Positions 4,963 through 34,336 of a DNA stretch of 41,385 nucleotides are shown here, piece after piece (position 1 is the first letter of the stretch; each line of letters starts with the position of its first letter). Under the pieces are notes generated by a model that worked only from the letters and a program-made list of their open reading frames with translations, ran no database searches and had not been told where the DNA came from. Made by a program: the position numbers and the translations under genes. The stretch is from Candidatus Fimenecus sp. (GTDB lineage: Bacteria > Bacillota > Clostridia > Oscillospirales > Acutalibacteraceae), in the NCBI GenBank assembly GCA_045591625.1, contig JAZNTF010000096.1:1-41385 (forward strand). Reading direction: 5' to 3'.

Positions 4963-4982
4963 AAATAATAAGGAGTTTTACA

Positions 4983-5421
4983 ATGTCAATTATAAACAAG
5001 GAAGTTTCCGATTTCAAAACCTATGCATATCACGAAAATGATTTTAAGACTGTTTCAAAAGAAGATATTCTTGGTAAATGGAGTGTTTTCTTTTTCTATC
5101 CTTGGACTTTACAATGCTGCGGGACCGGGACAACAAATTGACGAACAGACTGAGCAAGAAATTAAAAATATAAAAAGTCCCGTAGATATGAAAATCTTGG
5201 TATCATTATCCTGTACAATGTGTCCTAATTTGGTTATTGCTTGTCAGCATATAGCAACACTTAATGAAAATATCCGTGCCGAAGTCTATGACATTCAGCA
5301 TTTTGAAGAATTGAAGAAAAAATATAATGTAATGAGTGTTCCATGTTTAGTTATAAATGACCATAATGTGTCATTCGGCAAGAAAAATATAAACCAGGTT
5401 TTAGAGCTAATCAGAAATTAA
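4983..5421 (+). pseudogene. remnant: 5' end of ahpC (2-Cys peroxiredoxin) joined out of frame to the CxxC thioredoxin-fold half of an AhpF N-terminal domain / Cp9-like redoxin
   Basis: After AAGGAG, MSIINKEVSDFKTYAYHENDFKTVSKEDILGKWSVFFFYP matches AhpC N-termini but stops before the peroxidatic FTFVCP motif. From about 5105 another frame reads GPGQQIDEQ...VSLSCTMCPNLV...NVMSVPCLVIN..., as in the AhpF NTD. No FAD/NADH domains follow. Confidence 0.55.
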
Positions 5422-5653: not shown

Positions 5654-5729
<76 letters not shown>

Positions 5730-12203: not shown

Positions 12204-12223
12204 ACCCTTTTTCCCTTTAATTG

Positions 12224-13234: not shown

Positions 13235-13247
13235 AAAAATCCTCTTT

Positions 13248-14258: not shown

Positions 14259-14261
14259 AGC

Positions 14262-14993: not shown

Positions 14994-15011
14994 TTAGTGT
15001 CCCTCCTCAGC

Positions 15012-15803
15012 TTATATAATCTTAACATAAGTATTTTCGTGCTTGTAAATTGTTCTTACACCGATTATAGCAACAATAATTGAGACTACTGCCCATATAA
15101 GGAGTGAAATATAGTGTGGTTCTTTGTTATAGAGCAACACATTTCGCATATCTGTCATAATAAGTGCTATCGGGTTACAGTGGATAAGAATATTACCTAT
15201 GATTTCGTTCTTTGGTAATATTCTTGTTTCAATTGAGTAGAAAATACCTGAAATATAGAAGCCTAACTGAAGAGCAACTGTAAGCACATTCATAAGGTCT
15301 TCAACGAAAACACCGAAATGAGTAATGATTGTAGTACATGCAAAGGTAATCATAAAAAGGAGTAACCAGAGAGGGATTACCCAAAGGAATTTCCATGTTA
15401 CAGGTACACGATAGAAAATCATAAATAGAATAGTAAGTGCACATGAAACAAACATCTTGATTCCGAAAATTGTTTCTTTTTCCAGGATGAAAATAAATTT
15501 TGGTATATAAACTTTTGTTACAACACTTTTCTTATCCTGAACAAGCTTAACGCCCGATTTAACAGTTTTACTGAAGAAGGTCCAGGTGTTCAGTCCGATG
15601 AAAACAAACACCGGGAAATATTGTTCACGGCTACCGAAAACATATACGGCAACAAAAGAGTAAACGAGCATATAAAGCAATGGGTCAAGAATCCACCACA
15701 TCCAGCTCAAAAATGAACCGGCAACCTCTGCCTTCATTCCGGATTTTGCTGCAAACATTGTATAATTTCCAAATTTTTTAATATCATTTATAAATCTTTT
15801 CAT
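15012..15803 (-). CDS. ABC-2 type transporter permease, TagG/Wzm-like
   Basis: About 263-aa polytopic ORF. ATG 15803 with GGAAGTGAGAG upstream is preferred over the TTG at 15821. Confidence 0.85.
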   Translation of the reverse strand: MKRFINDIKKFGNYTMFAAKSGMKAEVAGSFLSWMWWILDPLLYMLVYSFVAVYVFGSREQYFPVFVFIGLNTWTFFSKTVKSGVKLVQDKKSVVTKVYIPKFIFILEKETIFGIKMFVSCALTILFMIFYRVPVTWKFLWVIPLWLLLFMITFACTTIITHFGVFVEDLMNVLTVALQLGFYISGIFYSIETRILPKNEIIGNILIHCNPIALIMTDMRNVLLYNKEPHYISLLIWAVVSIIVAIIGVRTIYKHENTYVKII

Positions 15804-15847
15804 AACTGCTCTCACTTCCAAATAACGGATTTATTTACAGACAAATA

Positions 15848-18333: not shown

Positions 18334-18383
18334 ATACTCAATATGGTAGTCGGTGAAACAGATTGCCGTGGAGGTGTTTTATT

Positions 18384-19097
18384 ATGGAACCAAAATATAA
18401 AAGAGTACTTTTAAAAGTCAGCGGTGAGGTGCTTGCCGGGGACAAAAAACATGGATTTGATTTTGATACAGTGAACAGCGTTTGTTCTGCTATCAAGGAG
18501 ATGGCAGATTTGGGAACAGAGGTTGCTATCGTTGTCGGTGGCGGTAATTTCTGGAGAGGTCGCTCAAGTGGTGATATGGACAGAACAAGAGCTGACCATA
18601 TCGGCATGCTTGCAACTGTTATGAACTCATTAGCTCTTGCTGATTCTCTTGAACAGTTGGGTGTAATTGTAAGAGTACAGACAGCTATTGAAATGAATAA
18701 GATTGCAGAGCCATACATCAGCCATCGTGCAAAGCGTCACCTTGAAAAAGGCAGAGTTGTAATTTTCGGTTGCGGAACAGGTAACCCATTCTTCTCAACT
18801 GACACTGCAGCTGCTCTTCGTGCAGCAGAAATTGATGCTGATATTATCTTTAAGGCAACAAATGTTGACGGCGTTTATGACAAAGACCCTAATCGTTTTG
18901 ATGATGCAATCAAGTACGATGTTATCACACATCAGGATATTCTCAGTAAGGGACTTGCAGTTATGGACAGCACTGCTGCTTCCCTTTGCAGAGATAATAA
19001 AATCCCACTTCTTGTTTTCAATCTTCAACAGCCTGAAAATATGGTTAAAGCTGTTAAGGGTGAAGTGGTAGGTACAATTGTTGTTGACGAGAAATAA
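18384..19097 (+). CDS. pyrH: UMP kinase
   Basis: [15 protein letters not shown]..., [13 protein letters not shown] 18384 follows GGAGGTG. Confidence 0.93.
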
Positions 19098-19123
19098 GAA
19101 TTTTACATAAAAGGAGAAACATT

Positions 19124-19678
19124 ATGAATACAGTATTTGACGCAATGAAAGAAAAAATGAACAAGACAATTTCTGTTCTTGAAAAAGATTTTGCAGGTAT
19201 GAGAGCAGGACGTGCAACACCTGCAGTTCTTGATAGAATTCAGGTTGACTACTACGGTGTTCCTACACCAATTCAGCAGATGGCTGCTGTTTCAGTAAGT
19301 GAAGGTAGAATTCTTGTGATTCAGCCATGGGACGTTTCAACAATCAATCCTATTTCAAAAGCAATTCAGGCTTCTGATATCGGCATCAATCCTATGAATG
19401 ACGGTAAGGTAATTCGTCTTACATTCCCACCACTTACAGAGGAACGCAGAAAGGCTCTTTGTAAGGACGTAAGCAAAACTGCTGAAGACTCTAAGGTTGC
19501 TATCCGTTCAATCCGTCGTGATGCAATTGATAAAATCAAGGCTATGAAGAAAAAAAGTGAAATCACTGAGGATGACCAGAAGGATGCAGAAACAAAGATT
19601 CAGAAAATTACTGATGATTTCGTAAAAGAAATTGATGCAATTGCTGATAAAAAAGAAAAAGAAATTATGGAGATATAA
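19124..19678 (+). CDS. frr: ribosome recycling factor
   Basis: 184 aa. Contains ...FAGMRAGRATPAVLD...YYG..TPI.Q...PLTEERRK.... Confidence 0.93.
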   Translation: MNTVFDAMKEKMNKTISVLEKDFAGMRAGRATPAVLDRIQVDYYGVPTPIQQMAAVSVSEGRILVIQPWDVSTINPISKAIQASDIGINPMNDGKVIRLTFPPLTEERRKALCKDVSKTAEDSKVAIRSIRRDAIDKIKAMKKKSEITEDDQKDAETKIQKITDDFVKEIDAIADKKEKEIMEI

Positions 19679-19686
19679 TCAATTTT

Positions 19687-19715
19687 GGGCGGATAAAACC
19701 GCCCTGATTTGCTTA
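19687..19715 (+). terminator. candidate terminator/attenuating hairpin after frr
   Basis: GGGCGG-ATAAAA-CCGCCC (19687-19704), followed by the interrupted T-run TGATTTGCTTATTTT. Confidence 0.45.
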
Positions 19716-19725
19716 TTTTAAGAAT

Positions 19726-20460
19726 GTGATGAAAAAGAATATACCTCAATTTTCAGTATTGCCCAAGCATATCGGTATCATTATGGATGGTAATGGCAGA
19801 TGGGCAAAACAAAGAAATTTACCACGATATAAAGGACATATAGAGGGTGCAAAGACATTTCGTAAAATCGGTGAATTTGCGGCAGATGTCGGTGTTAAAT
19901 GTATGACCTTTTATGCCTTTTCAACTGAAAACTGGAAGCGTCCGCAAGAAGAAGTGGATGCAATTATGCAGTTGTTCAGAGAGTATCTGAAGGAAGCGGA
20001 AGAGCGAAAAGAAGAAAATCGTGAAAAAGGAATTGCTCTTCGTTTTATTGGTGACCGTCAGGGAATTCCTGAAGATATACAGGCACTCATGGAACAGATT
20101 GAACAGGGAACTCAGTATGAAACAAAGGTTATTTTAAATCTTGCTATCAACTATGGCGGACGTCACGAGATTACTCAGGGAGTGCAGGAAATTGCTCAAA
20201 AGGTTAAAAACGGAGAGCTTTTGCCGGAGGAAATTACAGAAGATGTAATATCTGACCACCTTTATACAAAAAATCATCCGGACCCGGACCTTATTATCCG
20301 ACCAAGCGGAGAATACAGATTGTCCAATTTCCTTACATGGCAGTCTGCTTATTCGGAATTCTGGTTTTCAAATGTGCTTTGGCCTGATTTTACCGAAGAA
20401 AATCTTTGCGAGGCATTGAGAGAGTTTGAAAAACGTAACAGACGATTTGGTGGGGTTTAG
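19726..20460 (+). CDS. uppS: isoprenyl transferase (undecaprenyl-diphosphate synthase)
   Basis: Contains HIGIIMDGNGRWA, FSTENWKRP and RPSGEYRLSNFLTWQ. The start is GTG 19726 or ATG 19729. Confidence 0.92.
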   Translation: MMKKNIPQFSVLPKHIGIIMDGNGRWAKQRNLPRYKGHIEGAKTFRKIGEFAADVGVKCMTFYAFSTENWKRPQEEVDAIMQLFREYLKEAEERKEENREKGIALRFIGDRQGIPEDIQALMEQIEQGTQYETKVILNLAINYGGRHEITQGVQEIAQKVKNGELLPEEITEDVISDHLYTKNHPDPDLIIRPSGEYRLSNFLTWQSAYSEFWFSNVLWPDFTEENLCEALREFEKRNRRFGGV

Positions 20461-20490
20461 TATTTTTATCATTTTGAAAGAGGACGAATT

Positions 20491-21360
20491 ATGGCAAAAA
20501 GAATAGTGTTTGGTCTCTTGTGGACTGCATTGGGAATTTCTGCACTTGTGTTTATGCATACGTGGTTTTTCTTGGCATTTGCAATGTTTTTATGCTTTAT
20601 GGCAACCTATGAACTGAATCGTTCCTGTGGGATTGAAAACAAGCCGGTTATGATTCTCAGTGTAGCAGTATCCAGCATATTTCCGTTGTATTATGAATAC
20701 GGACATTATTTGCAAGAGATAGAAGGAATCAATCTTAAAACAGAATATTTGCTTGTGATATATATTCTTTTATTGTGCTTTATGATGCTTCATAATCATG
20801 AAAAGACTAAGTTTTCACAGATTGCATTTGTTATAGTATCATCCTTGTTGGTGCCATATTCATTCTCAAGACTTATGTTCTTCCGTGATATTGCAAAGTA
20901 TTATCCAGAAAGAGAATACACAACTGCTCATGGAGTATTCCTTATTTTGTTCCTTCTCTTTTCAGCTTGTTTTACAGATACATTTGCATATTTTACAGGC
21001 AGTTTCCTCGGAAAGCATAAGCTTTGTCCGAAAATTAGTCCTAAGAAAACAATTGAAGGTGCAGTGGGTGGCGTATTAGGATGTATTCTTGCGAATGTCA
21101 TTCTTTATGCTGTTTATGATAATCTCATCTTTGCAAATCCTGTTCACAATTACCTTGCAATAGTGCTTATTTCAATAGTTCTTTCTGTTGTAGGTATGTG
21201 TGGTGACCTTACAGCATCACTTATTAAACGTAATTATGGAATTAAAGATTTCGGAAATCTTATTCCGGGACATGGTGGAATAATGGACCGTTTTGACAGT
21301 ATTTTATTTGTTTGTGCTGCTTTCTACGCAGTGTTCAATATTTTTGAGGTGTCAATATAA
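20491..21360 (+). CDS. cdsA: phosphatidate cytidylyltransferase
   Basis: 289-aa polytopic ORF. C-terminal signature SLIKRNYGIKDFGNLIPGHGGIMDRFDS. Confidence 0.9.
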   Translation: MAKRIVFGLLWTALGISALVFMHTWFFLAFAMFLCFMATYELNRSCGIENKPVMILSVAVSSIFPLYYEYGHYLQEIEGINLKTEYLLVIYILLLCFMMLHNHEKTKFSQIAFVIVSSLLVPYSFSRLMFFRDIAKYYPEREYTTAHGVFLILFLLFSACFTDTFAYFTGSFLGKHKLCPKISPKKTIEGAVGGVLGCILANVILYAVYDNLIFANPVHNYLAIVLISIVLSVVGMCGDLTASLIKRNYGIKDFGNLIPGHGGIMDRFDSILFVCAAFYAVFNIFEVSI

Positions 21361-21361
21361 A

Positions 21362-22513
21362 ATGACTAAAAATTTAAGTATTTTAGGCTCAACAGGTTCC
21401 ATTGGTACTCAGAGCCTTGAAACAGCAAGAAAGTGCGGTTACTCTGTGTCCGCGCTTTCGGCATATTCAAACGTGGATTTAATCGAAGAACAAATTCGTG
21501 AATTTAAACCAAAAGTAGCTGCATTGGTTGACGAAAATGCAGCCAGAGAGCTCAAAAACAGAGTTTCTGATATGGACATAAAAGTTCTTTCAGGAATTAA
21601 AGGTGTTTGTGAGTGTGCAGCAGTTGACGAAGCCGATACTGTAATCAACTCAGTTGTTGGTATGGCAGGTCTTAAGCCAACACTTACAGCAATTGATGCA
21701 AATAAAAAAATTGCCCTTGCCAATAAGGAAACTCTCGTTGCAGGTGGTCTTCTTGTAACTACGAATGCAAAGGAAAAGGGTGTGGATATTCTTCCGGTTG
21801 ATTCGGAGCATTCTGCCATTTTTCAATGCTTACAGGGACAACCAAGCAACAAAGCGTTAAAGAGAATTATTCTTACTGCAAGTGGTGGCCCTTTCTTTGG
21901 CAAGACAAGAGAAGAATTGGAGAAGGTAACTGTTGCAGACGCTCTTAAGCATCCGAACTGGTGTATGGGACAAAAAATAACCATCGATTCTGCTACAATG
22001 ATGAATAAAGGACTTGAACTTATTGAGGCAGTATGGCTTTTCGATGTTCATCCTTCAAAAATTGAAATCGTTGTTCACAGGGAGAGTATAATTCATTCTG
22101 CAGTTGAGTATGATGATAATGCGGTAATAGCACAGCTGGGACTTCCTGATATGAAAATTCCGATTCAGTATGCTCTTACATACCCTGAGAGAATCGAATC
22201 ACTTACAGGAGAGTTGGATTTGACTAAATTGGGTACCTTGACATTCTATAAGCCTGATTATGAAACATTCAGATGCATGGACATTTGTCGTGAAGCAATT
22301 ACACGTGGTGGACTTTATCCTGCATTTGCAAATTCAGCTAATGAACAGGCAAATCTGATGTTCAGAAAAGGTGAAATCGGATTTTTGCAGATTGCCGAGT
22401 TAGTTGAAAAGGTTATGAACGAAGCTCCAAAAGTAAGTACTTATACAGTGGATGATGTTTATGATGCAGATGTTCTTGCAAGAGAGCTTGTAATTAAATA
22501 TGCAAAACAGTAA
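21362..22513 (+). CDS. dxr: 1-deoxy-D-xylulose 5-phosphate reductoisomerase
   Basis: Contains LSILGSTGSIGTQSL, LANKETLV, DSEHSAIFQC and HPNWCMG. ATG 21362 lies 1 nt after the cdsA stop; the longer ORF from 21293 overlaps cdsA and is rejected. Confidence 0.93.
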   Translation: MTKNLSILGSTGSIGTQSLETARKCGYSVSALSAYSNVDLIEEQIREFKPKVAALVDENAARELKNRVSDMDIKVLSGIKGVCECAAVDEADTVINSVVGMAGLKPTLTAIDANKKIALANKETLVAGGLLVTTNAKEKGVDILPVDSEHSAIFQCLQGQPSNKALKRIILTASGGPFFGKTREELEKVTVADALKHPNWCMGQKITIDSATMMNKGLELIEAVWLFDVHPSKIEIVVHRESIIHSAVEYDDNAVIAQLGLPDMKIPIQYALTYPERIESLTGELDLTKLGTLTFYKPDYETFRCMDICREAITRGGLYPAFANSANEQANLMFRKGEIGFLQIAELVEKVMNEAPKVSTYTVDDVYDADVLARELVIKYAKQ

Positions 22514-22534
22514 TTTTTAGAAAGCAGTGATTTT

Positions 22535-23593
22535 TTGGAAATTTGGTCAAAGGTGTGGCCTTTCTTAGTTGCAATTTTATTTTTCGGACTTCTTATTTCA
22601 ATACATGAATTGGGACATTTTACTTTTGCAAAGCTTTTTAAAGTAAAGGTCAATGAATTTGCTCTTGGAATGGGTCCTGCTATTTTAAAGAAAAAGAAGG
22701 GTGAAACAACTTATGCTCTTCGTCTTCTTCCGATTGGTGGATATGTAAGCATGGAGGGTGAAGATAAAGAAAGTTCAGACGAAAACGCGTTTAATCGTAA
22801 AAAAGTCTGGCAGAAGATTATTATTGTTGCCGCCGGAGCCATAATGAACTTGATTTTGGGTGTTGTAATTGTTGCAACCTGCCTGGCTATGGATGACTTG
22901 GTTGGTACAACTGAAATTCTTCAGTTTGAAGAGAATGCAATAAGTCATCAGACAGGTCTTGAAGCCGGAGACCGGATTCTGGAAATCGATGGTCATAAGG
23001 TTTTTTCTGATATGGACATTTCGTTTCTGATGACAAGAAGTGACGACGGAATTTTTGATATGGTTGTTCGTCGTGATGGTGAAAAGGTTGACCTTGAGGG
23101 TGTTACCTTCAAGACTCAGAAGGAAGACGGATATACAATCATTTCTTATGATTTTGTAATTCTTGGTAAAGAAACAACTTTTTTGAATGTGGTTTCCACA
23201 GCGGTTAAACAGACCATTTCTATCGGCAGACTTGTGTGGTTGAGTCTTTTTGACCTAGTAACCGGCAAATTCGGACTTTCTGATTTATCAGGTCCTGTCG
23301 GTACTGTGAATATACTTGCTGATGTCACATCTTCGGCAGTGGAGAGTAAGGCGAATCTTATTTCTGCACTGACATTGATGTCGTTTGTATCAATAAATAT
23401 TGGTATTTTCAATCTTTTGCCATTACCGGCACTTGATGGTGGCAGATTATTCTTCTTGATTATTGAAGGCATTCGCAGAAAACCGATAAATCCTAAATAT
23501 GAGGGATATATTCATGGTGCAGGACTTGCATTATTGCTTCTTTTAATGGTGGCGGTAACCTTCAATGATATTGTGAATCTTATAAGAAATTAA
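22535..23593 (+). CDS. rseP: RIP metalloprotease RseP (M50 site-2 protease) with one PDZ domain
   Basis: HELGHF in TM1 and NLLPLPALDGG near the C-terminus. TTG start is uncertain. Confidence 0.88.
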   Translation: MEIWSKVWPFLVAILFFGLLISIHELGHFTFAKLFKVKVNEFALGMGPAILKKKKGETTYALRLLPIGGYVSMEGEDKESSDENAFNRKKVWQKIIIVAAGAIMNLILGVVIVATCLAMDDLVGTTEILQFEENAISHQTGLEAGDRILEIDGHKVFSDMDISFLMTRSDDGIFDMVVRRDGEKVDLEGVTFKTQKEDGYTIISYDFVILGKETTFLNVVSTAVKQTISIGRLVWLSLFDLVTGKFGLSDLSGPVGTVNILADVTSSAVESKANLISALTLMSFVSINIGIFNLLPLPALDGGRLFFLIIEGIRRKPINPKYEGYIHGAGLALLLLLMVAVTFNDIVNLIRN

Positions 23594-23603
23594 AGGTGTT
23601 ATT

Positions 23604-24656
23604 ATGATAGAACGCAGAAAAAGTCGTGTTATAATGGCAGGAAATGTGAAAATCGGTGGAGACAATCCGATAGCAGTTCAGTCAATGCTCAATGTTATTG
23701 CTGAGGATGCAGAGGGTAATGTAAGACAAGCTGTTGAATTAGAAAAAGCAGGTTGTCAGATTGTCCGACTTACTGTTCCTAATAAAGAAGCTGTAAGAAC
23801 TCTTTATGCAGTAAAAAATGCAGTCAATATTCCTGTTGTGGCTGATATTCATTTTGATTATCGTTGTGCTTTGGAAAGCGTTGCGGCAGGAGTTGACAAA
23901 ATCAGAATCAATCCTGGTAATATCGGTGATGACGAAAAAGTAAAAGCGGTTGCAGATGCTTGTCGTCTTCATAATGTACCTATTCGTATCGGAGTTAATT
24001 CAGGTTCCCTTGAAAAGAATTTACTTGCAAAATATGGTTCTCCTACACCTGAAGCTATGGCCGAAAGTGCAATGTATCATATAGGACTTTTAGAGAAATT
24101 TGATTATAACGATATAGTTGTGTCAATCAAATCATCCGATGTTCAGAAAATGGTAAAGGCATACAGACTTGTTGCTGATATGTGTGACTATCCGTTACAC
24201 CTTGGTGTTACAGAAGCTGGTACACATAATATGGCTCTTGTAAAATCAAGTATCGGTATCGGTTCACTTTTGCTTGATGGTATCGGAGACACCATTCGAG
24301 TATCAATGACGGATGACCCTGTAACAGAGGTTAAGGCTGGTTTCGATATTTTAAAGGCAGCAGGAATTAAAACTGACTGTGCACAAATAGTGTCTTGCCC
24401 AACTTGTGGCAGAACAAAAATTGACCTTATCGGTCTTGCGGAAAAGGTAGAAAAAGCACTTGTAAATTATGATAAACCAATCAAAGTGGCAGTAATGGGT
24501 TGTGTTGTTAATGGTCCCGGTGAAGCAAAGGAAGCTGATATCGGTGTTGCCGGTGGCGATGGTTGTGGTGTTATTTTCAAGCATGGTGAAGTGCTTAAAA
24601 AAGTAAACGAAAATGAAATAGTAGAAGAATTATTGAAAGAGATAGAAAAGATATAA
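23604..24656 (+). CDS. ispG: 4-hydroxy-3-methylbut-2-en-1-yl diphosphate synthase
   Basis: Contains VQSMLN, IRINPGNIG, CPTCGRT and VMGCVVNGPGEA. Confidence 0.93.
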   Translation: MIERRKSRVIMAGNVKIGGDNPIAVQSMLNVIAEDAEGNVRQAVELEKAGCQIVRLTVPNKEAVRTLYAVKNAVNIPVVADIHFDYRCALESVAAGVDKIRINPGNIGDDEKVKAVADACRLHNVPIRIGVNSGSLEKNLLAKYGSPTPEAMAESAMYHIGLLEKFDYNDIVVSIKSSDVQKMVKAYRLVADMCDYPLHLGVTEAGTHNMALVKSSIGIGSLLLDGIGDTIRVSMTDDPVTEVKAGFDILKAAGIKTDCAQIVSCPTCGRTKIDLIGLAEKVEKALVNYDKPIKVAVMGCVVNGPGEAKEADIGVAGGDGCGVIFKHGEVLKKVNENEIVEELLKEIEKI

Positions 24657-24669: not shown

Positions 24670-27600
24670 ATGGCAATAGTAAAATCACTTTTCGGTGAGT
24701 TTTTTGATTGCACACAAAATCTCGATATTGCCTTTGCAGATATCGTAGGATTTTCTGTATCACAGGAAAAAATGAGTGCAAAGCTCACTGTAAAGCCTTA
24801 TAGGAAAATAGAAAAAGAAAGAATTGAAGCTCTTGAAAGTCAACTTTCAAGGGCTGTCAATGTTAATATAACCATTGTTTGCGACGAGTCAAGAATTGGA
24901 TTCCGTACTGAATTTATGAATTTGGTTGTAGAAATTTTGAGAGATAAAATTGTTGTTGCAAACGGATATTTTAACAATGCAGAGTACGAGATTTTCGGCA
25001 AGGAGTTAAAAATTTCCCTTAAAAAAGGTGGAAAGGATATTCTCCTTTCTGCAAATTGTGATAAGGAAATTGAAAGAATTATAAAGGGGATATTTGGTGT
25101 TGAATATACTGTAACTTTGATTCAGGAAGACAATTTCAATACGGAAATGGCTATTGACAGTATGCAGAAAAAAGCAGATGAAGAAATTCGTCGAGAAAAA
25201 AATATCCCTGATACATATTCCGAGTCCAATGAGCCAAAAGCTCATGTCGTTAAAGACGGTTTCCCGCTTTATCTCGAAACACAAAAGCCTATCTACGGAA
25301 ATCTTATCCGTACAGCGAATTTACAAAAGCTTTGTGATGTTTCAATTGAAAGTGGTGCTGTTGCTGTCTGGGGTGAGGTTTTCAGCCTTGATGTGAGAAC
25401 AACACGAGATGGAAAAAACAATATTATCAATTTTAATATTACAGATAAAACTTATTCATATACAGTAAAGATTTTTGAGTCTTGTACAAATGCCAAATCA
25501 TTTCTTTCAGCTTTGAGTGAAGGTACAACGGTAATTGTTTATGGCAGAGTCAGTTTTGATAAATATTCAGGTGAAAATATTATTTCTGCTACTGCCGTAA
25601 ATACTGTAACTCAGATAAAGAAAAAGGATAATGCCGAAAAGAAAAGAGTTGAATTGCATCTTCATACAAATATGTCCGATATGGACGGCATGACAGGTGC
25701 GGATAAACTTGTTAAACGAGCAATCAGTTGGGGACATCCTGCTATTGCTATTACTGACCACGGTAATGTTCAAGGTTATCCTGATGCTATGAAGGGTAAA
25801 GGCAAGGATGATATTAAACTTATTTATGGTGTTGAAGGTTACCTTATTGACGATATCGGAAATCCTGAAACACCTTGGGAAAAGCTCCCAAGATACCATA
25901 TTATTCTTCTTGTACAGAACAAGGTTGGTCTTAAGAATTTATATAAGATTGTGTCACTTGCTCATACAACTTATTATCACACAAGACCATGTATTCCACG
26001 TTCAAAACTTAACGAATTAAGAGACGGAATTATTGTGGGCTCTGCTTGTGAAGCAGGTGAGCTTATAAAGGCAATTCTTCTTGAAAAGTCTGATGAAGAA
26101 ATTATTGAAATAGCAAAATATTACGATTATCTTGAAATTCAGCCTGACGGAAACAATATGTTTATGATTGCTTCTCATTCAGACCCGAATGCCAAAAATC
26201 CGGACAGGAATAAAGAGTATAACAAAATTAAGACTCTTGAGGATATTCGTGATATTAACCGAAAGATTATCCATCTTGGTGACAAATTAGATAAGCTTGT
26301 GTGCGCAACAGGTGACGTTCACTTTATGGACCCTGAGGATGCTAAATTCCGTGCTATTCTTATGGCTGGTAAGGGCTTCGACGATGCCGATGACCAGGCA
26401 CCGCTTTATTTTAAGACAACTGACGAAATGCTCGAAGAATTTTCATATCTTGGTGAAGATACTGCATACGAGGTTGTTGTTACAAATACAAATAAAATTG
26501 CAGATATGATTGAACAGGTAAGACCTATTCCTGAGGGAACATTCCAACCGTCAATCCCCGGTGCAGAACAAGAGCTTCGTGACATTTGTTGGGCAAAAGC
26601 AAAGGATTGGTACGGCGAAGAAGTGCCTGAATATGTTGCTGATCGACTTACACGAGAGCTGGAATCAATTATCAAGCACGGATTCGCTGTTCTTTATATT
26701 ATCGCACAAAAGCTTGTTTGGGACTCTGAGTCTCATGGTTATCATGTTGGTTCCCGAGGTTCTGTCGGTTCATCCTTCGTTGCTACAATGGCAGGTATTT
26801 CGGAGGTTAATCCGTTAGCGCCACATTATCGTTGCGCAAAGTGCAGACACAGTGAATTTTTCCTTCATGGTGAGTATGGTTCCGGATTTGATATGCCACC
26901 AAAGAATTGTCCGCATTGTGATATTCCAATGGTGCGTGACGGACACGAAATTCCGTTTGAAACTTTCCTTGGTTTCCACGGTGATAAAGCTCCCGATATC
27001 GACCTTAACTTCTCCGGTGATTATCAGGGTAATGCTCATAGATATACAGAAGAGCTTTTCGGTCGTGACCACGTGTTCAAGGCAGGTACTATCGCAACCG
27101 TTGCCGATAAAACTGCTTATGGATATGTGAAAAAGTATCTTGATGAAAGAGGAAAGGTTGTAACTCGTGCAGAAGAAGACAGACTTACAAAGGGTTGTAC
27201 AGGTATTAAGCGTACAACAGGTCAGCATCCCGGCGGTATGGTTGTTGTACCTAATGAATTTGATGTTTACGACTTTACTGCAGTTCAATTCCCTGCTAAC
27301 GATACATCTTCGGATATGGAAACAACTCACTTCGACTTCCATTTCTTGCATGACACAATTTTAAAACTTGATATTCTCGGCCATGATGTACCTACACTCT
27401 ATAAACATCTCGAAGATATGACAGGAATCCCTGTTATGGATGTTGATGTTTGTGACCCGAAGATAGTAAGTCTTTGTACAAGCCCTGAAGCGTTGGGTCT
27501 TACTCCTGATGATATCGGTGTACAGACAGGTACTCTTTCAATTCCTGAAATGGGTACGGATTTCGTTCGTGGTATGCTTATGGAGGCACAACCAAAATGC

Positions 27601-28452
27601 TTCTCTGACCTTTTGCAGATTTCAGGTCTTTCTCATGGTACTGACGTTTGGCTCGGTAATGCACAGGAGCTTATCAAAGATGGTACTTGTACAATTTCTG
27701 ATGTTATCGGTACTCGAGACAGTATTATGACATATCTTATGCATAAAGGTCTTGACTCCGGTCTTGCATTCAACATTATGGAAAAGACTCGTAAGGGTAT
27801 CGTTGCAAAGGTTGGTTTCCCTGAGGGTGCCGAGGAAGCAATGAGAGCTTGTAATGTTCCTGAATGGTATATGGAATCTTGTCGTAAAATCAAGTATATG
27901 TTCCCAAAGGCTCACGCTGCGGCTTACGTTATTGCAGCACTTCGTCTCGGCTGGTACAAGATTTATAAGCCTACCGAATATTACACAGCATTCCTGACTG
28001 TTCGTGGCGGTGACCTTGACGCTGTTACAGTTTGTCAGGGTAGGGATGCAGTTAAGAGAAAAATGGTTGAACTTCACGGACCTCTTAATGCAGAGCCAAA
28101 GGACAGAAAGCCAATGACCACAAAAGAAAAAGACCAGTTTACTGCACTTCAGGTTGTCAACGAAATGATGGCAAGAGGCGTTGAGCTTCTTCCTGTTGAT
28201 ATTTATAAATCCCGTGCAAGTGTTTATTACATAGAAGACGGAAAAATCAGAATGCCGTTTTCTGCTTTATCAGGTGTTGGTGAAAAGGCCGCTGATGAAA
28301 TTGTAAGAAGACGAGATGAAAGTGATGGGACATTCGTGTCTGTTGACGATTTCCAGGCAAAGACAGGTGCTTCAAGTGCTGTTGTAACTGCACTCAAAGA
28401 AATCGGTGCATTTGGTGATATGCCTGAAACTGCCCAAATCTCTTTCTTTTAG
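24670..28452 (+). CDS. polC: PolC-type DNA polymerase III alpha subunit lacking the inserted 3'-5' exonuclease domain
   Basis: 1260 aa. N-terminal domain, OB fold, PHP (ELHLHTNMSDMDG, ITDHG), PolC Zn finger (CAKC...CPHC), polymerase core (GSRGSVGSSFVA, PDIDLNF, GQHPGG) and C-terminal HhH. Between IYGVEGYLIDD and RYHIILLVQNKVGLKNLYKIVS only about 14 residues replace the roughly 190-aa DEDDh domain. Confidence 0.9.
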   Translation: MAIVKSLFGEFFDCTQNLDIAFADIVGFSVSQEKMSAKLTVKPYRKIEKERIEALESQLSRAVNVNITIVCDESRIGFRTEFMNLVVEILRDKIVVANGYFNNAEYEIFGKELKISLKKGGKDILLSANCDKEIERIIKGIFGVEYTVTLIQEDNFNTEMAIDSMQKKADEEIRREKNIPDTYSESNEPKAHVVKDGFPLYLETQKPIYGNLIRTANLQKLCDVSIESGAVAVWGEVFSLDVRTTRDGKNNIINFNITDKTYSYTVKIFESCTNAKSFLSALSEGTTVIVYGRVSFDKYSGENIISATAVNTVTQIKKKDNAEKKRVELHLHTNMSDMDGMTGADKLVKRAISWGHPAIAITDHGNVQGYPDAMKGKGKDDIKLIYGVEGYLIDDIGNPETPWEKLPRYHIILLVQNKVGLKNLYKIVSLAHTTYYHTRPCIPRSKLNELRDGIIVGSACEAGELIKAILLEKSDEEIIEIAKYYDYLEIQPDGNNMFMIASHSDPNAKNPDRNKEYNKIKTLEDIRDINRKIIHLGDKLDKLVCATGDVHFMDPEDAKFRAILMAGKGFDDADDQAPLYFKTTDEMLEEFSYLGEDTAYEVVVTNTNKIADMIEQVRPIPEGTFQPSIPGAEQELRDICWAKAKDWYGEEVPEYVADRLTRELESIIKHGFAVLYIIAQKLVWDSESHGYHVGSRGSVGSSFVATMAGISEVNPLAPHYRCAKCRHSEFFLHGEYGSGFDMPPKNCPHCDIPMVRDGHEIPFETFLGFHGDKAPDIDLNFSGDYQGNAHRYTEELFGRDHVFKAGTIATVADKTAYGYVKKYLDERGKVVTRAEEDRLTKGCTGIKRTTGQHPGGMVVVPNEFDVYDFTAVQFPANDTSSDMETTHFDFHFLHDTILKLDILGHDVPTLYKHLEDMTGIPVMDVDVCDPKIVSLCTSPEALGLTPDDIGVQTGTLSIPEMGTDFVRGMLMEAQPKCFSDLLQISGLSHGTDVWLGNAQELIKDGTCTISDVIGTRDSIMTYLMHKGLDSGLAFNIMEKTRKGIVAKVGFPEGAEEAMRACNVPEWYMESCRKIKYMFPKAHAAAYVIAALRLGWYKIYKPTEYYTAFLTVRGGDLDAVTVCQGRDAVKRKMVELHGPLNAEPKDRKPMTTKEKDQFTALQVVNEMMARGVELLPVDIYKSRASVYYIEDGKIRMPFSALSGVGEKAADEIVRRRDESDGTFVSVDDFQAKTGASSAVVTALKEIGAFGDMPETAQISFF

Positions 28453-28706: not shown

Positions 28707-29903
28707 ATGAAAAATTACTCAAAAATTACTCCCGAGGGAACAAAAGACTATCTGGCAATGGAAAGCAGAGCTATCCGTTGTGCAGAAAAAAGACTTTCCT
28801 CTGTATTTAAATCAAAAGGCTATGAAAAGGTAATGACACCAACAATCGAATTTTTCGATGTGTTCAATCGTGAAAGCTCAGGTTATAATCCTGAAGATTT
28901 ATATAGCTTGACTGATTCGTACGGAAGACTTTTGGTGCTTCGACCTGATTCAACTCTTCCTATTGCAAGACTTGTGTCAACTCGTTTCCAGAATGCTCGT
29001 TTGCCACTTCGTCTTTATTACAATCAAAATGTTTTTGTAAGACAGAAAAATCTTACAGGCAGAAGTGACGAAGCAACACAGAGTGGTATCGAGCTTATGG
29101 GTGCTTACGGACTTCGTGCAGATTTAGAGGTTATTACAACTGCTGTTGAATCTATTGAAAGCTGTACTTCTGCTGATTTTAAGCTTGAAATCGGTCACGC
29201 AGGTTTCTTTAAAGAGCTTTGTAAAAAACTTAATGTAAGTGACGAAATCGTAAGCTCAATTTATGATTGTGTTGAAAGCCGAAATTTCGTTTCACTTAAC
29301 AACATTCTTGATAAAATCGGTAAAAATGGTGTAACAGATTGCATCCGTAATCTTCCAAGATTTTTCGGTGGTGCAGAAGTTATCGAAAAAGCCAAGCAGA
29401 TTGATTTGGGTGAAGAAGGTCAGAAGAGTCTTGATTATCTAAAAGAATTATATATGCTTTTATGTGAAGCAGGACTTTCAGACAAAATCGTTATTGACTT
29501 GAGCCTTGTAAACAGAACAAATTACTACACAGGCATTATCTTTAAAGGTTATCTTCAAGGTAGTGGTATTTCAGTGGTTTCTGGTGGTCGTTATGACAGC
29601 CTTGGTGCTGAATTCGGCAGAGATATGCCATCAACAGGCTTCGGTATTGAAACAGGTGCTTTGGCATCAGTAATGCTTTCTCGAAATGAGCTTGATGAAG
29701 AAAAAGTTCCTGCAATTATTGTTTTTGGTGAAAAAGATTTTGTTGTTAAGGCACTGGAGTATTCTAAAAATCTTCGTGCAGAGGGTGTCTACTGTGAAAA
29801 CAGTACATTTGAAACACTCGAAGAAACAAGGGAATATGCAATGTCAAAAGGCATTAAAAAGATTTGCATAATTGGTGACAGTGTAAGGGAGGAAATATTA
29901 TGA
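28707..29903 (+). CDS. hisZ: ATP phosphoribosyltransferase regulatory subunit (HisRS paralog)
   Basis: 398 aa. HisS-like class II core (PEGTKDYL, MTPTIEFFDVF, LRPDSTLPIARL). Overlaps the short-form hisG by 4 nt. Confidence 0.88.
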   Translation: MKNYSKITPEGTKDYLAMESRAIRCAEKRLSSVFKSKGYEKVMTPTIEFFDVFNRESSGYNPEDLYSLTDSYGRLLVLRPDSTLPIARLVSTRFQNARLPLRLYYNQNVFVRQKNLTGRSDEATQSGIELMGAYGLRADLEVITTAVESIESCTSADFKLEIGHAGFFKELCKKLNVSDEIVSSIYDCVESRNFVSLNNILDKIGKNGVTDCIRNLPRFFGGAEVIEKAKQIDLGEEGQKSLDYLKELYMLLCEAGLSDKIVIDLSLVNRTNYYTGIIFKGYLQGSGISVVSGGRYDSLGAEFGRDMPSTGFGIETGALASVMLSRNELDEEKVPAIIVFGEKDFVVKALEYSKNLRAEGVYCENSTFETLEETREYAMSKGIKKICIIGDSVREEIL

Positions 29904-30532
29904 GAAAACTAAGAATTGCCCTTACAAAAGGTCGACTTGAAAAGAAAAGTGTTGAGCTCTTTGAGAAAATGGGAATTGATTGTGATGAACTCATAAACAA
30001 AGGCAGACGCCTTATTCTCACAGCAGGTGACTATGAAGTTGTCCTTGCAAAAGCAGCGGATGTTATTACATATGTTGAACACGGTGTGTGTGATATCGGT
30101 ATTGTTGGTAAAGATACAATCGTAGAAAACGGTAAAAGCTTCTACGAAATGACAGATTTGAATCTCGGTAAATGTGATTTTGCACTTGCAACACAAAAGG
30201 GTGTTGATTTCTACGACGGATTCAATACAAAACGAATTGCTACAAAATACCCTAATATAACAAAAGCATATTTTGAGGGAAAAGGAATGGATGTCAAGAT
30301 TATTAAAATCGAAGGCTCTGTTGAATTAGCTCCACTTCTTAATCTTGCTGACGGTATTGTGGATATTGTTGAAACAGGCACAACACTTAAAGAAAACGGA
30401 CTTGAAGTGAAAGAAAAGATTATGCCTGTTTCAGCTCGTGTAATTGTTAATATGGCAAGTATGAAGCTTCGTCGTGAAGAAATCGACAAGTTCCTTGAAG
30501 AAATTGAAAAGGTTATCCCAAAGGGTGAATGA
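29900..30532 (+). CDS. hisG: ATP phosphoribosyltransferase, short form
   Basis: 210 aa. Contains LRIALTKGRL, GVCDIGIVGKD and DIVETGTTLKENGL. Confidence 0.92.
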   Translation: MRKLRIALTKGRLEKKSVELFEKMGIDCDELINKGRRLILTAGDYEVVLAKAADVITYVEHGVCDIGIVGKDTIVENGKSFYEMTDLNLGKCDFALATQKGVDFYDGFNTKRIATKYPNITKAYFEGKGMDVKIIKIEGSVELAPLLNLADGIVDIVETGTTLKENGLEVKEKIMPVSARVIVNMASMKLRREEIDKFLEEIEKVIPKGE

Positions 30533-30533
30533 T

Positions 30534-31820
30534 ATGATAAATACAGTATTTGCAGACGGTAAGGCTGATGAAGCACTTATCGCACAACTTAAAGAAAGAA
30601 GTGGCGAGGTTGACAAGAAGGTTACTCTTGCCGTTACTGATATTCTTGAAAATGTAAAAGCAAACGGTGATAAAGCCGTACTTGAATACACAATAAAGTT
30701 TGACGGAAAAGCACCTGAAAAGGCTGAAATTTCAAAAGGAGAAATTGATAAGGCTATCGAAAAATGTGACCCATTCTTCGTAAAAGCACTTGAAGATGCA
30801 GCAGAAAACATTCGTGATTTCCATGCAAGACAGAAACAGCAGAGTTGGCTCACAACAAAGGAAAACGGCGTTATTATGGGACAGCGTGTGCGTGGACTCG
30901 AGAGAGTCGGTCTTTATGTTCCCGGTGGTACTGCAGCTTATCCGTCAAGTGTGCTTATGAATGCTATTCCTGCAAAAATCGCAGGTGTTAAGGAACTTGT
31001 TATGGTAACACCTCCATCAAAAGATGGCACACCAAATCCTGATATTCTTGCTGCTGCTAAAATTGCTGGTGTTGACAGAGTATTCTTAATGGGTGGTGCA
31101 CAGGCTGTTGCAGCACTTGCATACGGAACTGAAACTGTTCCTAAGGTTGACAAAATCGTAGGTCCCGGTAACATCTTCGTTGCTACTGCAAAGAAACTTC
31201 TTTACGGTACAGTTGATATTGATATGGTTGCAGGTCCGAGTGAAATTTTGATTGTTGCTGACGAAACTGCAAATCCTAAATTCCTTGCTGCTGACCTTAT
31301 GAGTCAGGCTGAACACGATGTATTGGCTTCTGCAATTCTTATTACAACAAGTGCTGAAATTGCAGAGGAAACAAAGAAAGAATTAGCAAGACAATGTGCT
31401 ACTCTTTCAAGAAAAGAGATTATCGAAAAATCACTTAAGGATTACAGTGCAATTATTATCTGTGACACAATGGATAAGGCTGTTGACTTTGCAAACAGAC
31501 TTGCACCTGAACACCTTGAAATGTGTGTACAGAATCCTATGGAATATATCGGCAGAATGGATAATGCAGGTAGTGTGTTCCTTGGTAACTATTCTCCTGA
31601 ACCATTGGGTGACTATTTTGCAGGTCCGAACCACGTTCTTCCTACAAGTGGTACAGCAAGATTTTTCTCACCATTGTCAGTTGACAGCTTTATTAAAAAA
31701 TCAAGCTTTATTTACTATACAGAAGATGCACTTCGTGAGTGCAAGGATAAGGTTGTTTCTCTTGCAGAAACAGAGGGCTTAACAGCTCATGCAAATTCAA
31801 TTAAGGTTAGATTTGAGTAA
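30534..31820 (+). CDS. hisD: histidinol dehydrogenase
   Basis: 428 aa from ATG 30534, which lies 1 nt after the hisG stop. Contains VPGGTAAYPSSVLMNAIPAKIAGV, GPGNIFVATAK, QAEHD and HANS. Confidence 0.93.
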   Translation: MINTVFADGKADEALIAQLKERSGEVDKKVTLAVTDILENVKANGDKAVLEYTIKFDGKAPEKAEISKGEIDKAIEKCDPFFVKALEDAAENIRDFHARQKQQSWLTTKENGVIMGQRVRGLERVGLYVPGGTAAYPSSVLMNAIPAKIAGVKELVMVTPPSKDGTPNPDILAAAKIAGVDRVFLMGGAQAVAALAYGTETVPKVDKIVGPGNIFVATAKKLLYGTVDIDMVAGPSEILIVADETANPKFLAADLMSQAEHDVLASAILITTSAEIAEETKKELARQCATLSRKEIIEKSLKDYSAIIICDTMDKAVDFANRLAPEHLEMCVQNPMEYIGRMDNAGSVFLGNYSPEPLGDYFAGPNHVLPTSGTARFFSPLSVDSFIKKSSFIYYTEDALRECKDKVVSLAETEGLTAHANSIKVRFE

Positions 31821-31978
31821 TTACTGATTAAATCTTAGTCACAATTCTCAACAGCTACTTTTCCGCCACAACTCGTCCAAAATACTCGTTAATACACAAA
31901 GTATTGCCTGCGTTTTTTGACGGTTCTGACAAAAAACTATCTCGCTGATAATCGTAACACGATTTAATCAGCAATTAC
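31817..31978. repeat. 162-bp long-palindrome MITE-like intergenic element, copy 2 (inside the his operon)
   Basis: Terminal inverted repeats GTAATTACTGATTAAATC / GATTTAATCAGCAATTAC (17/18). The interior is collinear with copy 1. It accounts for essentially all of the 171-nt hisD-hisC gap. Confidence 0.8.
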
Positions 31979-31991
31979 ATGAGGACTAATA

Positions 31992-33044
31992 ATGTTTAAT
32001 TTGAATGAAAAAGTAAAAAATTTAACACCATATGAGCCAATCAGCGGTACATATGAAATCCGTCTTGATGCCAACGAGTCATTTCTCACTTTTCCAAAAG
32101 AAATTGAAGACGAAATGGTAGATGCTTTAAGAAATTCTGCGTTGAATCGTTATCCTGACCCAATGGCAACAAAACTCCTTAAAGGTTTCTCGGATTATTT
32201 CAATGTAAATCCTGAATGTGTAACGGCAGGTAATGGCTCTGACGAGATTATTTCAGTTATAATGAATGCGTTTTTGCAGAAGGGTGACAAGATTTTAACT
32301 CTTGAACCTGACTTCTCAATGTATCGTTTTTATGCTGAAATTGCAGAATGTGAAAGTGTAAAGTATCAGAAAGACGAAAATCTTGATGTAAATGTTGATG
32401 ATGTAATCGCACTTGCAAAGAAAGAAAATGTGAGAATCGTGATTTTCTCAAATCCTTGTAACCCAACATCAAGAATTGTTACAAAGGATGATGTAAGAAA
32501 ACTCATAAACAGCGTTGATTCACTTGTTGTGCTTGATGAAGCATATATGGATTTCGCAGGTGATGAAAGTCTTTTAGGTGAATTTGAAAATTACGATAAT
32601 CTTATTATTTTAAAGACTTGTTCAAAGGCATTGGGCTCAGCAGCACTTCGTCTTGGTTTTGCTGTGGCAAATAAGACCCTTACAAATGTAATTCGTGCAG
32701 TAAAATCTCCATATAATGTGAATTCTGTTTCACAGGCTCTCGGTGAAGTTCTTTTTTCACATCCTGATTATATTGATAAGTGTATTGAAACAGTTGTAAA
32801 CTCAAGAAAAGAACTTTACGCAGAACTTATTAAAATCGAAAGTGATAAAATCGAAAAAATATACGAAACACATACTAACTTTGTATTTATGAAAGTGAAA
32901 AATGCAAAGTCTGTGTTTGAAAAAATGAAAGATAACAGCATTATCATTCGTAATATGGGTGACTATTTGAGAATTACTGCAGGTACAAAGTACGAGAACG
33001 AAAAAATGCTTGAAACATTCAAAAAAGTGTTGGAGGAAGTGTAA
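31992..33044 (+). CDS. hisC: histidinol-phosphate aminotransferase
   Basis: 350 aa. Contains LDANES, NRYPDP, NPCNPT and the PLP lysine context LKTCSKALG. Confidence 0.9.
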   Translation: MFNLNEKVKNLTPYEPISGTYEIRLDANESFLTFPKEIEDEMVDALRNSALNRYPDPMATKLLKGFSDYFNVNPECVTAGNGSDEIISVIMNAFLQKGDKILTLEPDFSMYRFYAEIAECESVKYQKDENLDVNVDDVIALAKKENVRIVIFSNPCNPTSRIVTKDDVRKLINSVDSLVVLDEAYMDFAGDESLLGEFENYDNLIILKTCSKALGSAALRLGFAVANKTLTNVIRAVKSPYNVNSVSQALGEVLFSHPDYIDKCIETVVNSRKELYAELIKIESDKIEKIYETHTNFVFMKVKNAKSVFEKMKDNSIIIRNMGDYLRITAGTKYENEKMLETFKKVLEEV

Positions 33045-33616
33045 TGAGAACTGCAACAATAGAAAGAAAAACAAAGGAAACAGATATTAATTTGACTCTC
33101 TGTCTTGATGGAGGAGAAGTTAAAATAGACACAGGTGTTGGCTTCTTTGACCATATGCTTACTGCATTCGCAACTCATGCAGGTTATGGCTTGACAGTTA
33201 CTTGTAAAGGTGATATTGAAGTTGATTGTCACCACACAGTTGAGGATATCGGCATTGTACTCGGTCAGGCATTTTTTGAATGTCTTGGGGACAAATCAAA
33301 TCTTGTTCGTTATGGTAGCTTCTTTGTACCAATGGATGAAGCACTCGGTTTCTGTGCTGTTGACATCTGCAACCGTGCATACACAGTTTTTGAAGCTAAT
33401 TTCCCACAGGAAAAATGCGGTGACTTTGATGTTTGTATGTGTGTTGAATTTTTCCGTGCATTAGCAGATAATGCAAAAATCACAGTACATCTTCGTGCAC
33501 CTTATGGTGATAATTCACACCATATTGCTGAGGCAATTTTCAAAGCATTTGGTCATGCAATGAGTATTGCAACAGAAAAAACAGATAAAACACTTTCAAC
33601 AAAGGGGACTTTATAA
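33044..33616 (+). CDS. hisB: imidazoleglycerol-phosphate dehydratase
   Basis: 190 aa. Contains RKTKETDI, DTGVGFFDHML, HHTVEDIGI and NSHHIAEAIFKAFG. Confidence 0.93.
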   Translation: MRTATIERKTKETDINLTLCLDGGEVKIDTGVGFFDHMLTAFATHAGYGLTVTCKGDIEVDCHHTVEDIGIVLGQAFFECLGDKSNLVRYGSFFVPMDEALGFCAVDICNRAYTVFEANFPQEKCGDFDVCMCVEFFRALADNAKITVHLRAPYGDNSHHIAEAIFKAFGHAMSIATEKTDKTLSTKGTL

Positions 33617-33619
33617 TAA

Positions 33620-34336
33620 ATGATTATTTTTCCTGCGATAGATATAAAAGATAAAGAATGTGTCCGTCTTTATAAGGGTGACTTTGCAACAGCCGGTAAA
33701 GTGGCAGACAGTTATATGGAAACTGCATTGAATTTCAAAAAATCAGGTGCAGAATGGATACATATGGTTGACCTTAACGGTGCACTTGATGGTGTAAGAA
33801 TAAATTCCGACATTTTCCTTGATGTTGCAAAAAACAGCGGACTTAAGGTTGAAGTAGGTGGCGGAATCCGTACAATGAAGGACGTTGATTTCTATATCCA
33901 GAACGGTATTGAAAGAGTTATCATCGGTTCTGCTGCACTTAAAAATCCACAGCTTGTAAAAGAGGCTTGTAAAGAGTTCGGTGACAGAATTGCCGTTGGA
34001 ATTGATGCTAAAAACGAAATGGTTGCAACTGAAGGTTGGACAGAAAAAAGTGATACGCACTATATCGACCTTGCAAAACGAATGGAAGATTTTGGTGTAA
34101 AGTACATTATCTTTACAGACATTGATTGTGATGGTATGCTTTCAGGTCCAAACCTTGAACAGTTAATAAAACTTAATGATGCAGTTTCTTGCAATATTAC
34201 TGCAAGTGGTGGCATTAAAGATATTTCCAACATAATTGACCTTAAAAAAGCCAATATGTATGGTGCAATCTGTGGCAGAAGTATTTACAGTGGCACATTG
34301 AATCTTGCAGAAGCAATCAAGGAGTGTGAAAAATAA
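33620..34336 (+). CDS. hisA: 1-(5-phosphoribosyl)-5-[(5-phosphoribosylamino)methylideneamino]imidazole-4-carboxamide isomerase
   Basis: 238 aa. Contains [34 protein letters not shown] and SGGI. Confidence 0.9.

Follow-up and report, generated by a model that had tools for sequence, protein, structure and literature searches.

PolC is the textbook replicase with a built-in DEDDh proofreader, and drugs such as ibezapolstat and its relatives are aimed at it. A polC gene that does not encode this proofreader raises the question of whether such a gene can be genuine and, if so, where its 3'-5' proofreading comes from. The question arises for a stretch of 41,385 nucleotides of Candidatus Fimenecus sp. 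(contig JAZNTF010000096.1), hereafter the window, whose positions serve as coordinates below unless another locus is named. Candidatus Fimenecus belongs to the class Clostridia, incertae sedis at NCBI. The window contains a polC gene whose open reading frame (ORF) runs without interruption through 1260 codons. The encoded protein, hereafter window PolC, almost certainly lacks the DEDDh exonuclease (Exo) domain and belongs to a known Exo-less subclass of PolC.

The protein scores 1468.5 bits against the NCBIfam PolC equivalog NF001688, well above the cut-off of 873, and 1331.7 bits against the PolC equivalog TIGR01405 (cut-off 1043.45), whereas all DnaE models stay far under their cut-offs (the best, NF005298, reaches 226.9 against 1260). 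Therefore, the protein is a PolC and not a DnaE. Pfam domains follow in the order N-II (residues 84-175), OB (235-302), PHP (328-491), Pol3 alpha (634-828), fingers (918-1043) and HHH_6 (1170-1251). This order, with an N-terminal domain, an OB fold before PHP, the Pol3 core and a C-terminal helix-hairpin-helix (HhH) domain, is that of the PolC type. Apart from Exo, the PolC domains and catalytic residues are all there according to Pfam and the alignment to Geobacillus kaustophilus PolC, as had been stated for the domains in a preliminary description of this DNA.

The Exo domain is missing at the PHP junction, and the profile matches, the structure-based alignments and a multiple alignment agree on this point. 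The match to NF001688 is split into two stretches, the second of which (residues 403-1260) opens at profile position 609 of 1445, and the match to TIGR01405 is likewise in two stretches. Against the full-length PolC 9qpc, residues 225-399 of window PolC align with chain positions 260-434 and residues 394-1260 with 626-1471, which leaves ~190 residues of 9qpc (chain 435-625) unmatched. The structure 3f2b is that of a G. kaustophilus PolC engineered for crystallisation, with its N-terminal and Exo domains deleted; window PolC is colinear with it as a single stretch (residues 224-1260) that begins near the start of the OB fold. When window PolC is aligned by MAFFT with its nearest Exo-bearing relatives (P0115, P0116 and P0118; 1434 residues), PHP residues E389 and H410 are separated by 20 residues in window PolC versus 213 in the relatives, and the 213-residue segment contains motifs I, II and III of Exo (DLETTG, HNAQFD and HRACDD). 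Across the clade, the loop at the junction measures 20-24 residues. A regular-expression search of the entire 1260-residue protein gave no match to the DEDDh motifs, a Pfam scan of the whole protein gave no match to RNase_T (PF00929), and tblastn of the window in all six frames with the relatives' Exo domain gave a best hit of only E=0.5. An AlphaFold2 model of residues 320-640 is a compact PHP domain with a predicted local distance difference test score (pLDDT) of 84.7; its junction stretch (pLDDT ~90) forms a short strand-loop-strand connection. Foldseek matches this model best to the PHP domain of 3f2b, in an alignment of 325 columns, while full-length 9qpc takes 510 columns because of its extra domain. 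A hidden or divergent Exo fold can therefore be ruled out: PolC domains cover every segment, there is no DEDDh motif and no Exo-like frame, and the model is a plain PHP domain. The preliminary description had placed the missing insertion at 25640-25960, which corresponds to residues 324-431, a span that covers the N-lobe of PHP, the junction and the beginning of the C-part. It had also reported that motifs of the DxE(T/S)TG, NxxFD and HxAxxD types and exonuclease remnants in other frames were absent. These statements are borne out, and the comparison with PolC profiles and structures that it proposed shows the missing insertion and no divergent Exo fold.

The short form itself is not new, although novelty had been implied. 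According to Timinskas et al. (Nucleic Acids Research 2014, PMC3919608), 6% of PolC sequences have no Exo insertion. Family membership of window PolC therefore rests on its other features. The Exo-less PolCs occur in Clostridia and Negativicutes, which have DnaE1 alongside PolC, and the one exception is an extra copy in Thermotogae (PMC3919608). Named examples are the Acidaminococcus PolCs of 1191 and 1210 residues, with N-terminal, OB, PHP, Pol3 and HhH domains, nine of nine PHP ligands and the polymerase set PolC plus DnaE1 (PMC3919608). The proteins of Acidaminococcus fermentans DSM 20731 (YP_003399045.1, 1191 residues) and A. intestini (YP_004896958.1, 1210 residues) resemble window PolC in having no Exo and the same architecture. 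They also share the ligand set HHDHEHCDH in full, and the clamp motif stands at the C-terminus or a few residues away from it. Both hosts are anaerobic Bacillota from taxa that pair PolC with DnaE1. The difference is one of lineage: the Acidaminococcus examples are Negativicutes, whereas Candidatus Fimenecus is known solely from metagenome-assembled genomes (MAGs). As read from its sequence, window PolC fits every trait of the Exo-less subclass that we tested. The Exo-less form has thus been known since 2013/14, and window PolC adds one lineage to it.

A short gene documented by a single window could be an artefact: sequence deleted in assembly, a pseudogene, or a secondary paralogue that accompanies a full-length polC. 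We scanned its relatives with one genome per GTDB species and found 79 species-level genomes with a short polC, each locus having its own whole-genome shotgun prefix; the proteins are 53-97% identical to window PolC. Most of these loci are from Candidatus Fimenecus sp., Clostridia bacterium, Ruminococcaceae or Oscillospiraceae, and they come from the guts of ruminants, humans, rabbits and chickens. At 79 of 79 loci, the match is a single colinear high-scoring segment pair with nothing inserted at the junction, and no second C-family polymerase was found within 10 kb on either side of polC. A large protein collection contains more than 110 clusters of 1244-1283 residues, all without PF00929 and coming from independent assemblies, and several of them were found on numerous independent contigs. 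The gene is under strong purifying selection. Pairwise ratios of non-synonymous to synonymous substitution rates (dN/dS) against orthologues are 0.04-0.10 for the entire gene, 0.04-0.08 for the PHP domain and 0.06-0.17 for the N-terminal domain, with dS unsaturated to moderately saturated; against the orthologue L071 (contig JAZSHP010000185.1, PolC 97% identical), for example, dN/dS is 0.041 at a dS of 0.48, and 0.036 for the PHP domain on its own. The surroundings are those of a canonical polC, as the Exo-bearing P0116 (locus L080) lies in the identical order pyrH-frr-uppS-cdsA-dxr-rseP-ispG-polC-hisZGDCB. Because this synteny is shared with an Exo-bearing polC, the short gene is the positional orthologue of canonical polC with one domain lost in frame. 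A paralogue would also be at odds with the 2014 survey, in which just one Clostridia genome has two polC genes and 6% of PolCs are without Exo (PMC3919608). With 79 genomes, purifying selection and canonical synteny, we dismiss an artefact, pseudogene or paralogue as very improbable. The short polC is a genuine, functional and positionally orthologous gene of the Exo-less PolC subclass. This agrees with the earlier reading of a clean domain absence rather than a pseudogene, the ORF being whole in all 79 genomes; an assembly deletion at the junction, which had been named as a possible objection, is excluded by the same short form in many independent assemblies, and the suggested survey of related genomes gave the 79 genomes above.

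With the DEDDh domain gone, the PHP domain is the candidate for proofreading within the same polypeptide. All nine PHP ligands are present in window PolC (H330, H332, D339, H364, E389, H410, C460, D549 and H551, giving HHDHEHCDH). The set is unchanged in 119 of 119 near-full-length close homologues and invariant too in alignment A1. HHDHEH[C/H]DH is the signature of an "active" PHP domain in the literature (PMC12926913), and the trinuclear zinc exonuclease centre of Mycobacterium tuberculosis DnaE1 is built from these nine residues (PMC5636811). In G. kaustophilus PolC, one PHP ligand is altered and PHP exonuclease activity is absent (PMC5636811). The altered ligand is seen in our alignment as GNVH versus GDVH in window PolC: D549 is kept here, whereas the position is Asn in the PolCs of G. 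kaustophilus, E. faecalis and E. faecium (HHDHEHCNH). The Exo domain of PolC is inserted into a loop that lines PHP's active site, and the corresponding loop is 18 residues long in Taq Pol III alpha and 29 in M. tuberculosis DnaE1 (PMC5636811). With 20 residues, the loop of window PolC is DnaE1-like in size by residue count.

Window PolC can be compared with two groups of characterized replicases. It resembles canonical PolC (Bacillus subtilis, Staphylococcus aureus, G. kaustophilus 3f2b and 9qpc) in equivalog scores, domain order, gene neighbourhood, zinc finger, catalytic aspartates, HhH domain and clamp motif, but canonical PolC has a DEDDh exonuclease of ~190 residues in the PHP domain. 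Without this domain, window PolC is naturally like the engineered 3f2b construct. With M. tuberculosis DnaE1 (5lew/7pu7) and Thermus Pol III alpha (2hpi/3e0d), it has the nine PHP ligands in common. The DnaE1-type replicases carry an 18-29-residue loop beside the PHP active site, where window PolC has its 20 residues and PolC usually has Exo, and in neither case is there a DEDDh domain within the polypeptide. Unlike the DnaE1 type, window PolC has an N-terminal OB fold, the PolC-specific N-terminal domain and zinc finger, and no DnaE C-terminal domain. PHP exonuclease activity is known from M. tuberculosis DnaE1 and is not known from any PolC. We note that window PolC stops right at its clamp motif (…QISFF*), while the orthologues L001 and L071 (1262-1264 residues) run 2-4 residues longer (…ISFFGF). 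The clamp-motif consensus for PolC is QLSLF in the supplement of PMC3919608.

If the PHP site had taken over proofreading, it should be kept where the DEDDh domain is lost or dead. With residues 200-1260 as query, we searched a set of 1.84 billion cluster representatives at the 50% identity level, and classified 121 near-full-length PolC representatives with a complete N-terminal region. Both Exo and PHP appear active in 51 of the 121, Exo is active and PHP inactive in 35, and Exo is absent and PHP active in 21. A further 13 have an Exo-sized insert with degenerate DEDDh residues and an active PHP site, and a single representative (P0212, 1178 residues), with Exo absent and PHP inactive, lacks both. 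The PHP site is thus perfect in 34 of 35 PolCs without a working DEDDh domain versus 51 of 86 with one (Fisher p=1.5e-5, uncorrected for phylogeny). This complementarity supports PHP proofreading, short of proof.

In P0139, P0150, P0152, P0156, P0163, P0171, P0172, P0189, P0211, P0236 and P0252, an insert of 142-291 residues at the Exo site carries degenerate DEDDh residues, and all nine PHP ligands are retained. These degenerate-Exo PolCs look like intermediate stages on the way from an active Exo to its deletion.

The Exo domain has evidently been lost repeatedly in PolC, judging from a neighbour-joining tree of 930 columns with the Exo region left out. The Exo-less PolCs are dispersed among Exo-bearing ones on this tree, which is crude, so that the count is indicative: Fitch parsimony gives 17 changes of Exo status, and 13-20 over 50 bootstrap replicates. 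The Exo-less P0128 is sister to the Exo-bearing P0129 in 50/50 replicates, and the Exo-bearing P0115 joins the Exo-less P0104 within the clade of window PolC in 44-47 of 50. Since the tree gives many Exo-less origins, the loss in the window's clade was probably an event independent of that in Acidaminococcus.

We propose that an ancestor of the Candidatus Fimenecus-like gut Clostridia lost the DEDDh exonuclease from polC by a clean in-frame deletion, which would have left the 20-residue loop in the PHP domain at the deletion site. The short PolC is expected to work still as a clamp-tethered replicase, because its core, zinc finger, OB fold, HhH domain, N-terminal domain and clamp motif are intact. 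Its 3'-5' proofreading would most likely come in cis from the trinuclear metal site of its own PHP domain, and a partner polymerase, DnaE1, is expected to be encoded in the genome. The precedent is the PHP site of M. tuberculosis DnaE1, a trinuclear zinc exonuclease that proofreads (PMC5636811), and we also take Thermus Pol III alpha as a precedent. We rate the PHP domain as the cis proofreader of window PolC at about even or slightly better. The preliminary description was right in naming PHP in cis and a free trans-acting DnaQ as the two options, and the nine invariant ligands favour PHP.

Several points weigh against this assignment. Intact PHP ligands are also found in the 51 Exo-active PolCs, so that an intact site alone is no proof of proofreading, and PHP conservation could reflect a structural or other role. 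The Fisher test ignores phylogeny, and Clostridia-type PolCs mostly keep the PHP site with or without Exo. As far as we found, the literature contains no exonuclease assay on any Exo-less PolC or PolC PHP domain; the one PolC examined, G. kaustophilus PolC with Exo deleted, was reported inactive and has one ligand changed (PMC5636811).

Proofreading might instead be supplied in trans, either by a free DnaQ-like DEDDh protein docking as E. coli epsilon does on alpha or by the PHP domain of DnaE1, with the PHP site of PolC kept for other reasons. Such arrangements have parallels: the Exo domain of B. subtilis PolC corrects errors of DnaE3 (PMC12926913), an average bacterial proteome includes more than three free-standing DnaQ homologues (PMC12926913), mycobacteria have DnaQ as a second proofreader besides PHP (PMC11348249), and a free 189-residue RNase_T gene lies between ispG and polC in the related genome L084. 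We nevertheless regard this as rather unlikely here. Domain scans and tblastn found no DnaQ-like ORF in the 41-kb window, and tblastn with the relatives' Exo domain found no Exo-like sequence at E ≤ 1e-3 in the 79 genomes over 10 kb on either side of polC; a more distant DnaQ paralogue may lie elsewhere in the genome. A search with the Exo domain, of which five PHP-less matches on long contigs were followed, gave no sign that the lost domain had been split off in Exo-less lineages. Retention of the PHP ligands in 34/35 Exo-lost or Exo-dead PolCs is what cis proofreading by PHP predicts.

It is also conceivable that window PolC does not proofread at all and that DnaE1, with an active PHP domain, is the main high-fidelity replicase, PolC having a reduced or specialised role that can do without proofreading, which would explain the repeated loss of Exo. 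Timinskas et al. asked whether, in organisms with Exo-less PolC, the main replicase might be DnaE1, noting that some Clostridia have DnaE1 only and that all Exo-less PolCs are in taxa with PolC plus DnaE1 (PMC3919608). The 13-20 changes of Exo status and the 13 relic lineages would likewise suggest a relaxed need for the DEDDh domain. Against this, the whole gene including PHP is under very strong purifying selection (the dN/dS values above), and conservation extends to the clamp motif, the catalytic aspartates and the zinc finger. Invariant PHP ligands would be needless in an accessory enzyme that does not proofread, and Exo-active PolCs have let PHP decay in 35 of 86 cases. We therefore consider a PolC without proofreading improbable, more so than proofreading in trans.

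Returning to cis proofreading by the PHP domain, a broader reading can be put forward. In Clostridia, PolC may have swapped proofreaders repeatedly, with the DEDDh domain first decaying (13 dead-Exo lineages) and then being deleted (22 Exo-less lineages, at 50% identity), and with PHP kept as the sole cis proofreader. Window PolC would then be a PolC that naturally parallels M. tuberculosis DnaE1, with proofreading by PHP at work in most clostridial PolCs. We hold this tentatively, at a little under even. The natural Exo-less PolCs indicate that the DEDDh domain can be lost where the PHP site is intact and, by the taxonomic pattern, PolC is paired with DnaE1 (PMC3919608). They offer a ready system for studying PHP proofreading in PolC and the division of labour between PolC and DnaE1 in Clostridia. 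What is added here is modest: the near-perfect match of Exo loss or decay with PHP retention, the existence of intermediates with a dead Exo, an indicative count of how often the domain was independently lost, and the finding that the short form abounds in Candidatus Fimenecus. The value of the window itself is small, in that an abundant uncultured gut lineage joins a known subclass.

The search for fission of the Exo domain into a gene of its own used the Exo domain of the sister lineage P0116 against a set of 5.8 billion proteins. Among the 120 matches listed, many also have a PHP domain. Five PHP-less matches on long contigs were followed, and four of them are pieces of frameshifted polC genes (P0457, P0460, P0512 and P0525). 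Only the fifth, in L084, is genuinely a free gene, but its neighbour is an Exo-bearing polC. In L084 (8001-12932), the free 189-residue RNase_T protein is 57% identical to the PolC Exo domain and is encoded between ispG and a polC for an Exo-bearing protein of 1442 residues, an arrangement found on 6 contigs. It looks like a separately encoded duplicate of the proofreader domain. At L083, L085, L086 and L087, polC and neighbouring genes are broken by frameshifts, as is typical of uncorrected long-read assemblies. Frameshifted polC fragments in protein databases can thus imitate domain fission.

DnaE1 occurs alongside PolC in Clostridia (PMC3919608, PMC12926913). We searched for it with the first 399 residues of Ethanoligenens harbinense DnaE1 (supplement of PMC3919608). 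The matches listed are all shorter than 700 residues, and the full-length source protein is absent from them, as might follow from a length limit linked to the shortened query. They include DnaE1 fragments in MAGs of Acutalibacteraceae and Oscillospiraceae, none of them attributable to Candidatus Fimenecus; the two matches that were followed come from an unbinned metagenome assembly (GCA_964261755.1). On two metagenome scaffolds whose product bears an Oscillospiraceae DNA polymerase III alpha name at NCBI (L081, 6001-12745; L082, 3181-9925), in the context murB-whiA-dnaE, dnaE1 is split into a 553-residue ORF (PHP and palm) and a 614-residue ORF (fingers, HhH and OB) by a 3.2-kb insert with a 619-residue RVT_1 ORF. 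We read this insert as a putative group II intron inside a replicase gene.

Table 1 The short polC gene, the parts of its product and the flanking genes in the window.
Feature	Position	Strand	Evidence or remark
pyrH, frr, uppS, cdsA, dxr, rseP, ispG (5' of polC)	18363..24656	+	Pfam scans
polC coding sequence, 1260-residue PolC-type DNA polymerase III alpha, Exo-less form	24670..28452	+	NF001688, Pfam, structure alignments
PolC N-terminal domain, residues 1-224 (N-II match, residues 84-175)	24670..25341	+	PF11490, E=1e-6
OB fold, residues 225-310, N-terminal to PHP as in PolC, not DnaE	25342..25599	+	PF01336 at residues 235-302
PHP N-terminal part, residues 324-389, ligands H330, H332, D339, H364, E389	25639..25836	+	Alignments
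20-residue loop, residues 390-409, at the usual site of the DnaQ-like exonuclease (~190-213 residues)	25837..25896	+	Alignment with Exo-bearing relatives
PHP C-terminal part, residues 410-620, ligands H410, C460, D549, H551	25897..26529	+	Alignments, Foldseek
Polymerase core (palm, thumb, fingers)	26530..28164	+	PF07733, PF17657; alignment to G. kaustophilus PolC
C4 zinc finger C722, C725, C747, C750	26833-26919	+	Residue alignment to G. kaustophilus PolC
Catalytic aspartates D776, D778 (PDIDLNF)	26995-27003	+	Residue alignment to G. kaustophilus PolC
Catalytic aspartate D901 (KLDILGHD)	27370-27372	+	Residue alignment to G. kaustophilus PolC
Tandem helix-hairpin-helix domain, residues 1170-1251	28177..28422	+	PF14579, E=1e-14
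Beta-clamp-binding motif QISFF, residues 1256-1260, extreme C-terminus	28435..28449	+	Orthologues have QISLF, QLSLF or QMSLF variants
hisZ-like, hisG, hisD, hisC, hisB, hisA/F (3' of polC)	28707..34336	+	Same order as at the Exo-bearing orthologue

Rfam and ARAGORN scans of the window found a tRNA-Ala (GGC; 5654-5729, minus strand) only, and nothing bearing on polC. At 4950-5421 on the plus strand, a 63-residue ORF matches an AhpC/TSA peroxiredoxin (PF00578, E=6.5e-4) over its initial ~55 residues only and stops just short of the catalytic Cys motif. A 132-residue Thioredoxin_3 ORF (5023-5421) overlaps it in another frame, and a desulfoferrodoxin gene (4588-4962) adjoins. The 63-residue ORF looks like a deletion scar or an ahpC pseudogene. 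A cell-surface polymer cluster occupies 9540-15821 on the minus strand. It includes an 887-residue fusion of a GT2 glycosyltransferase and a CDP-glycerol glycerophosphotransferase, an ABC ATPase with an ABC-2 permease, and tandem Stealth-family genes (12224-13294 and 13248-14258) that overlap by 47 nucleotides.

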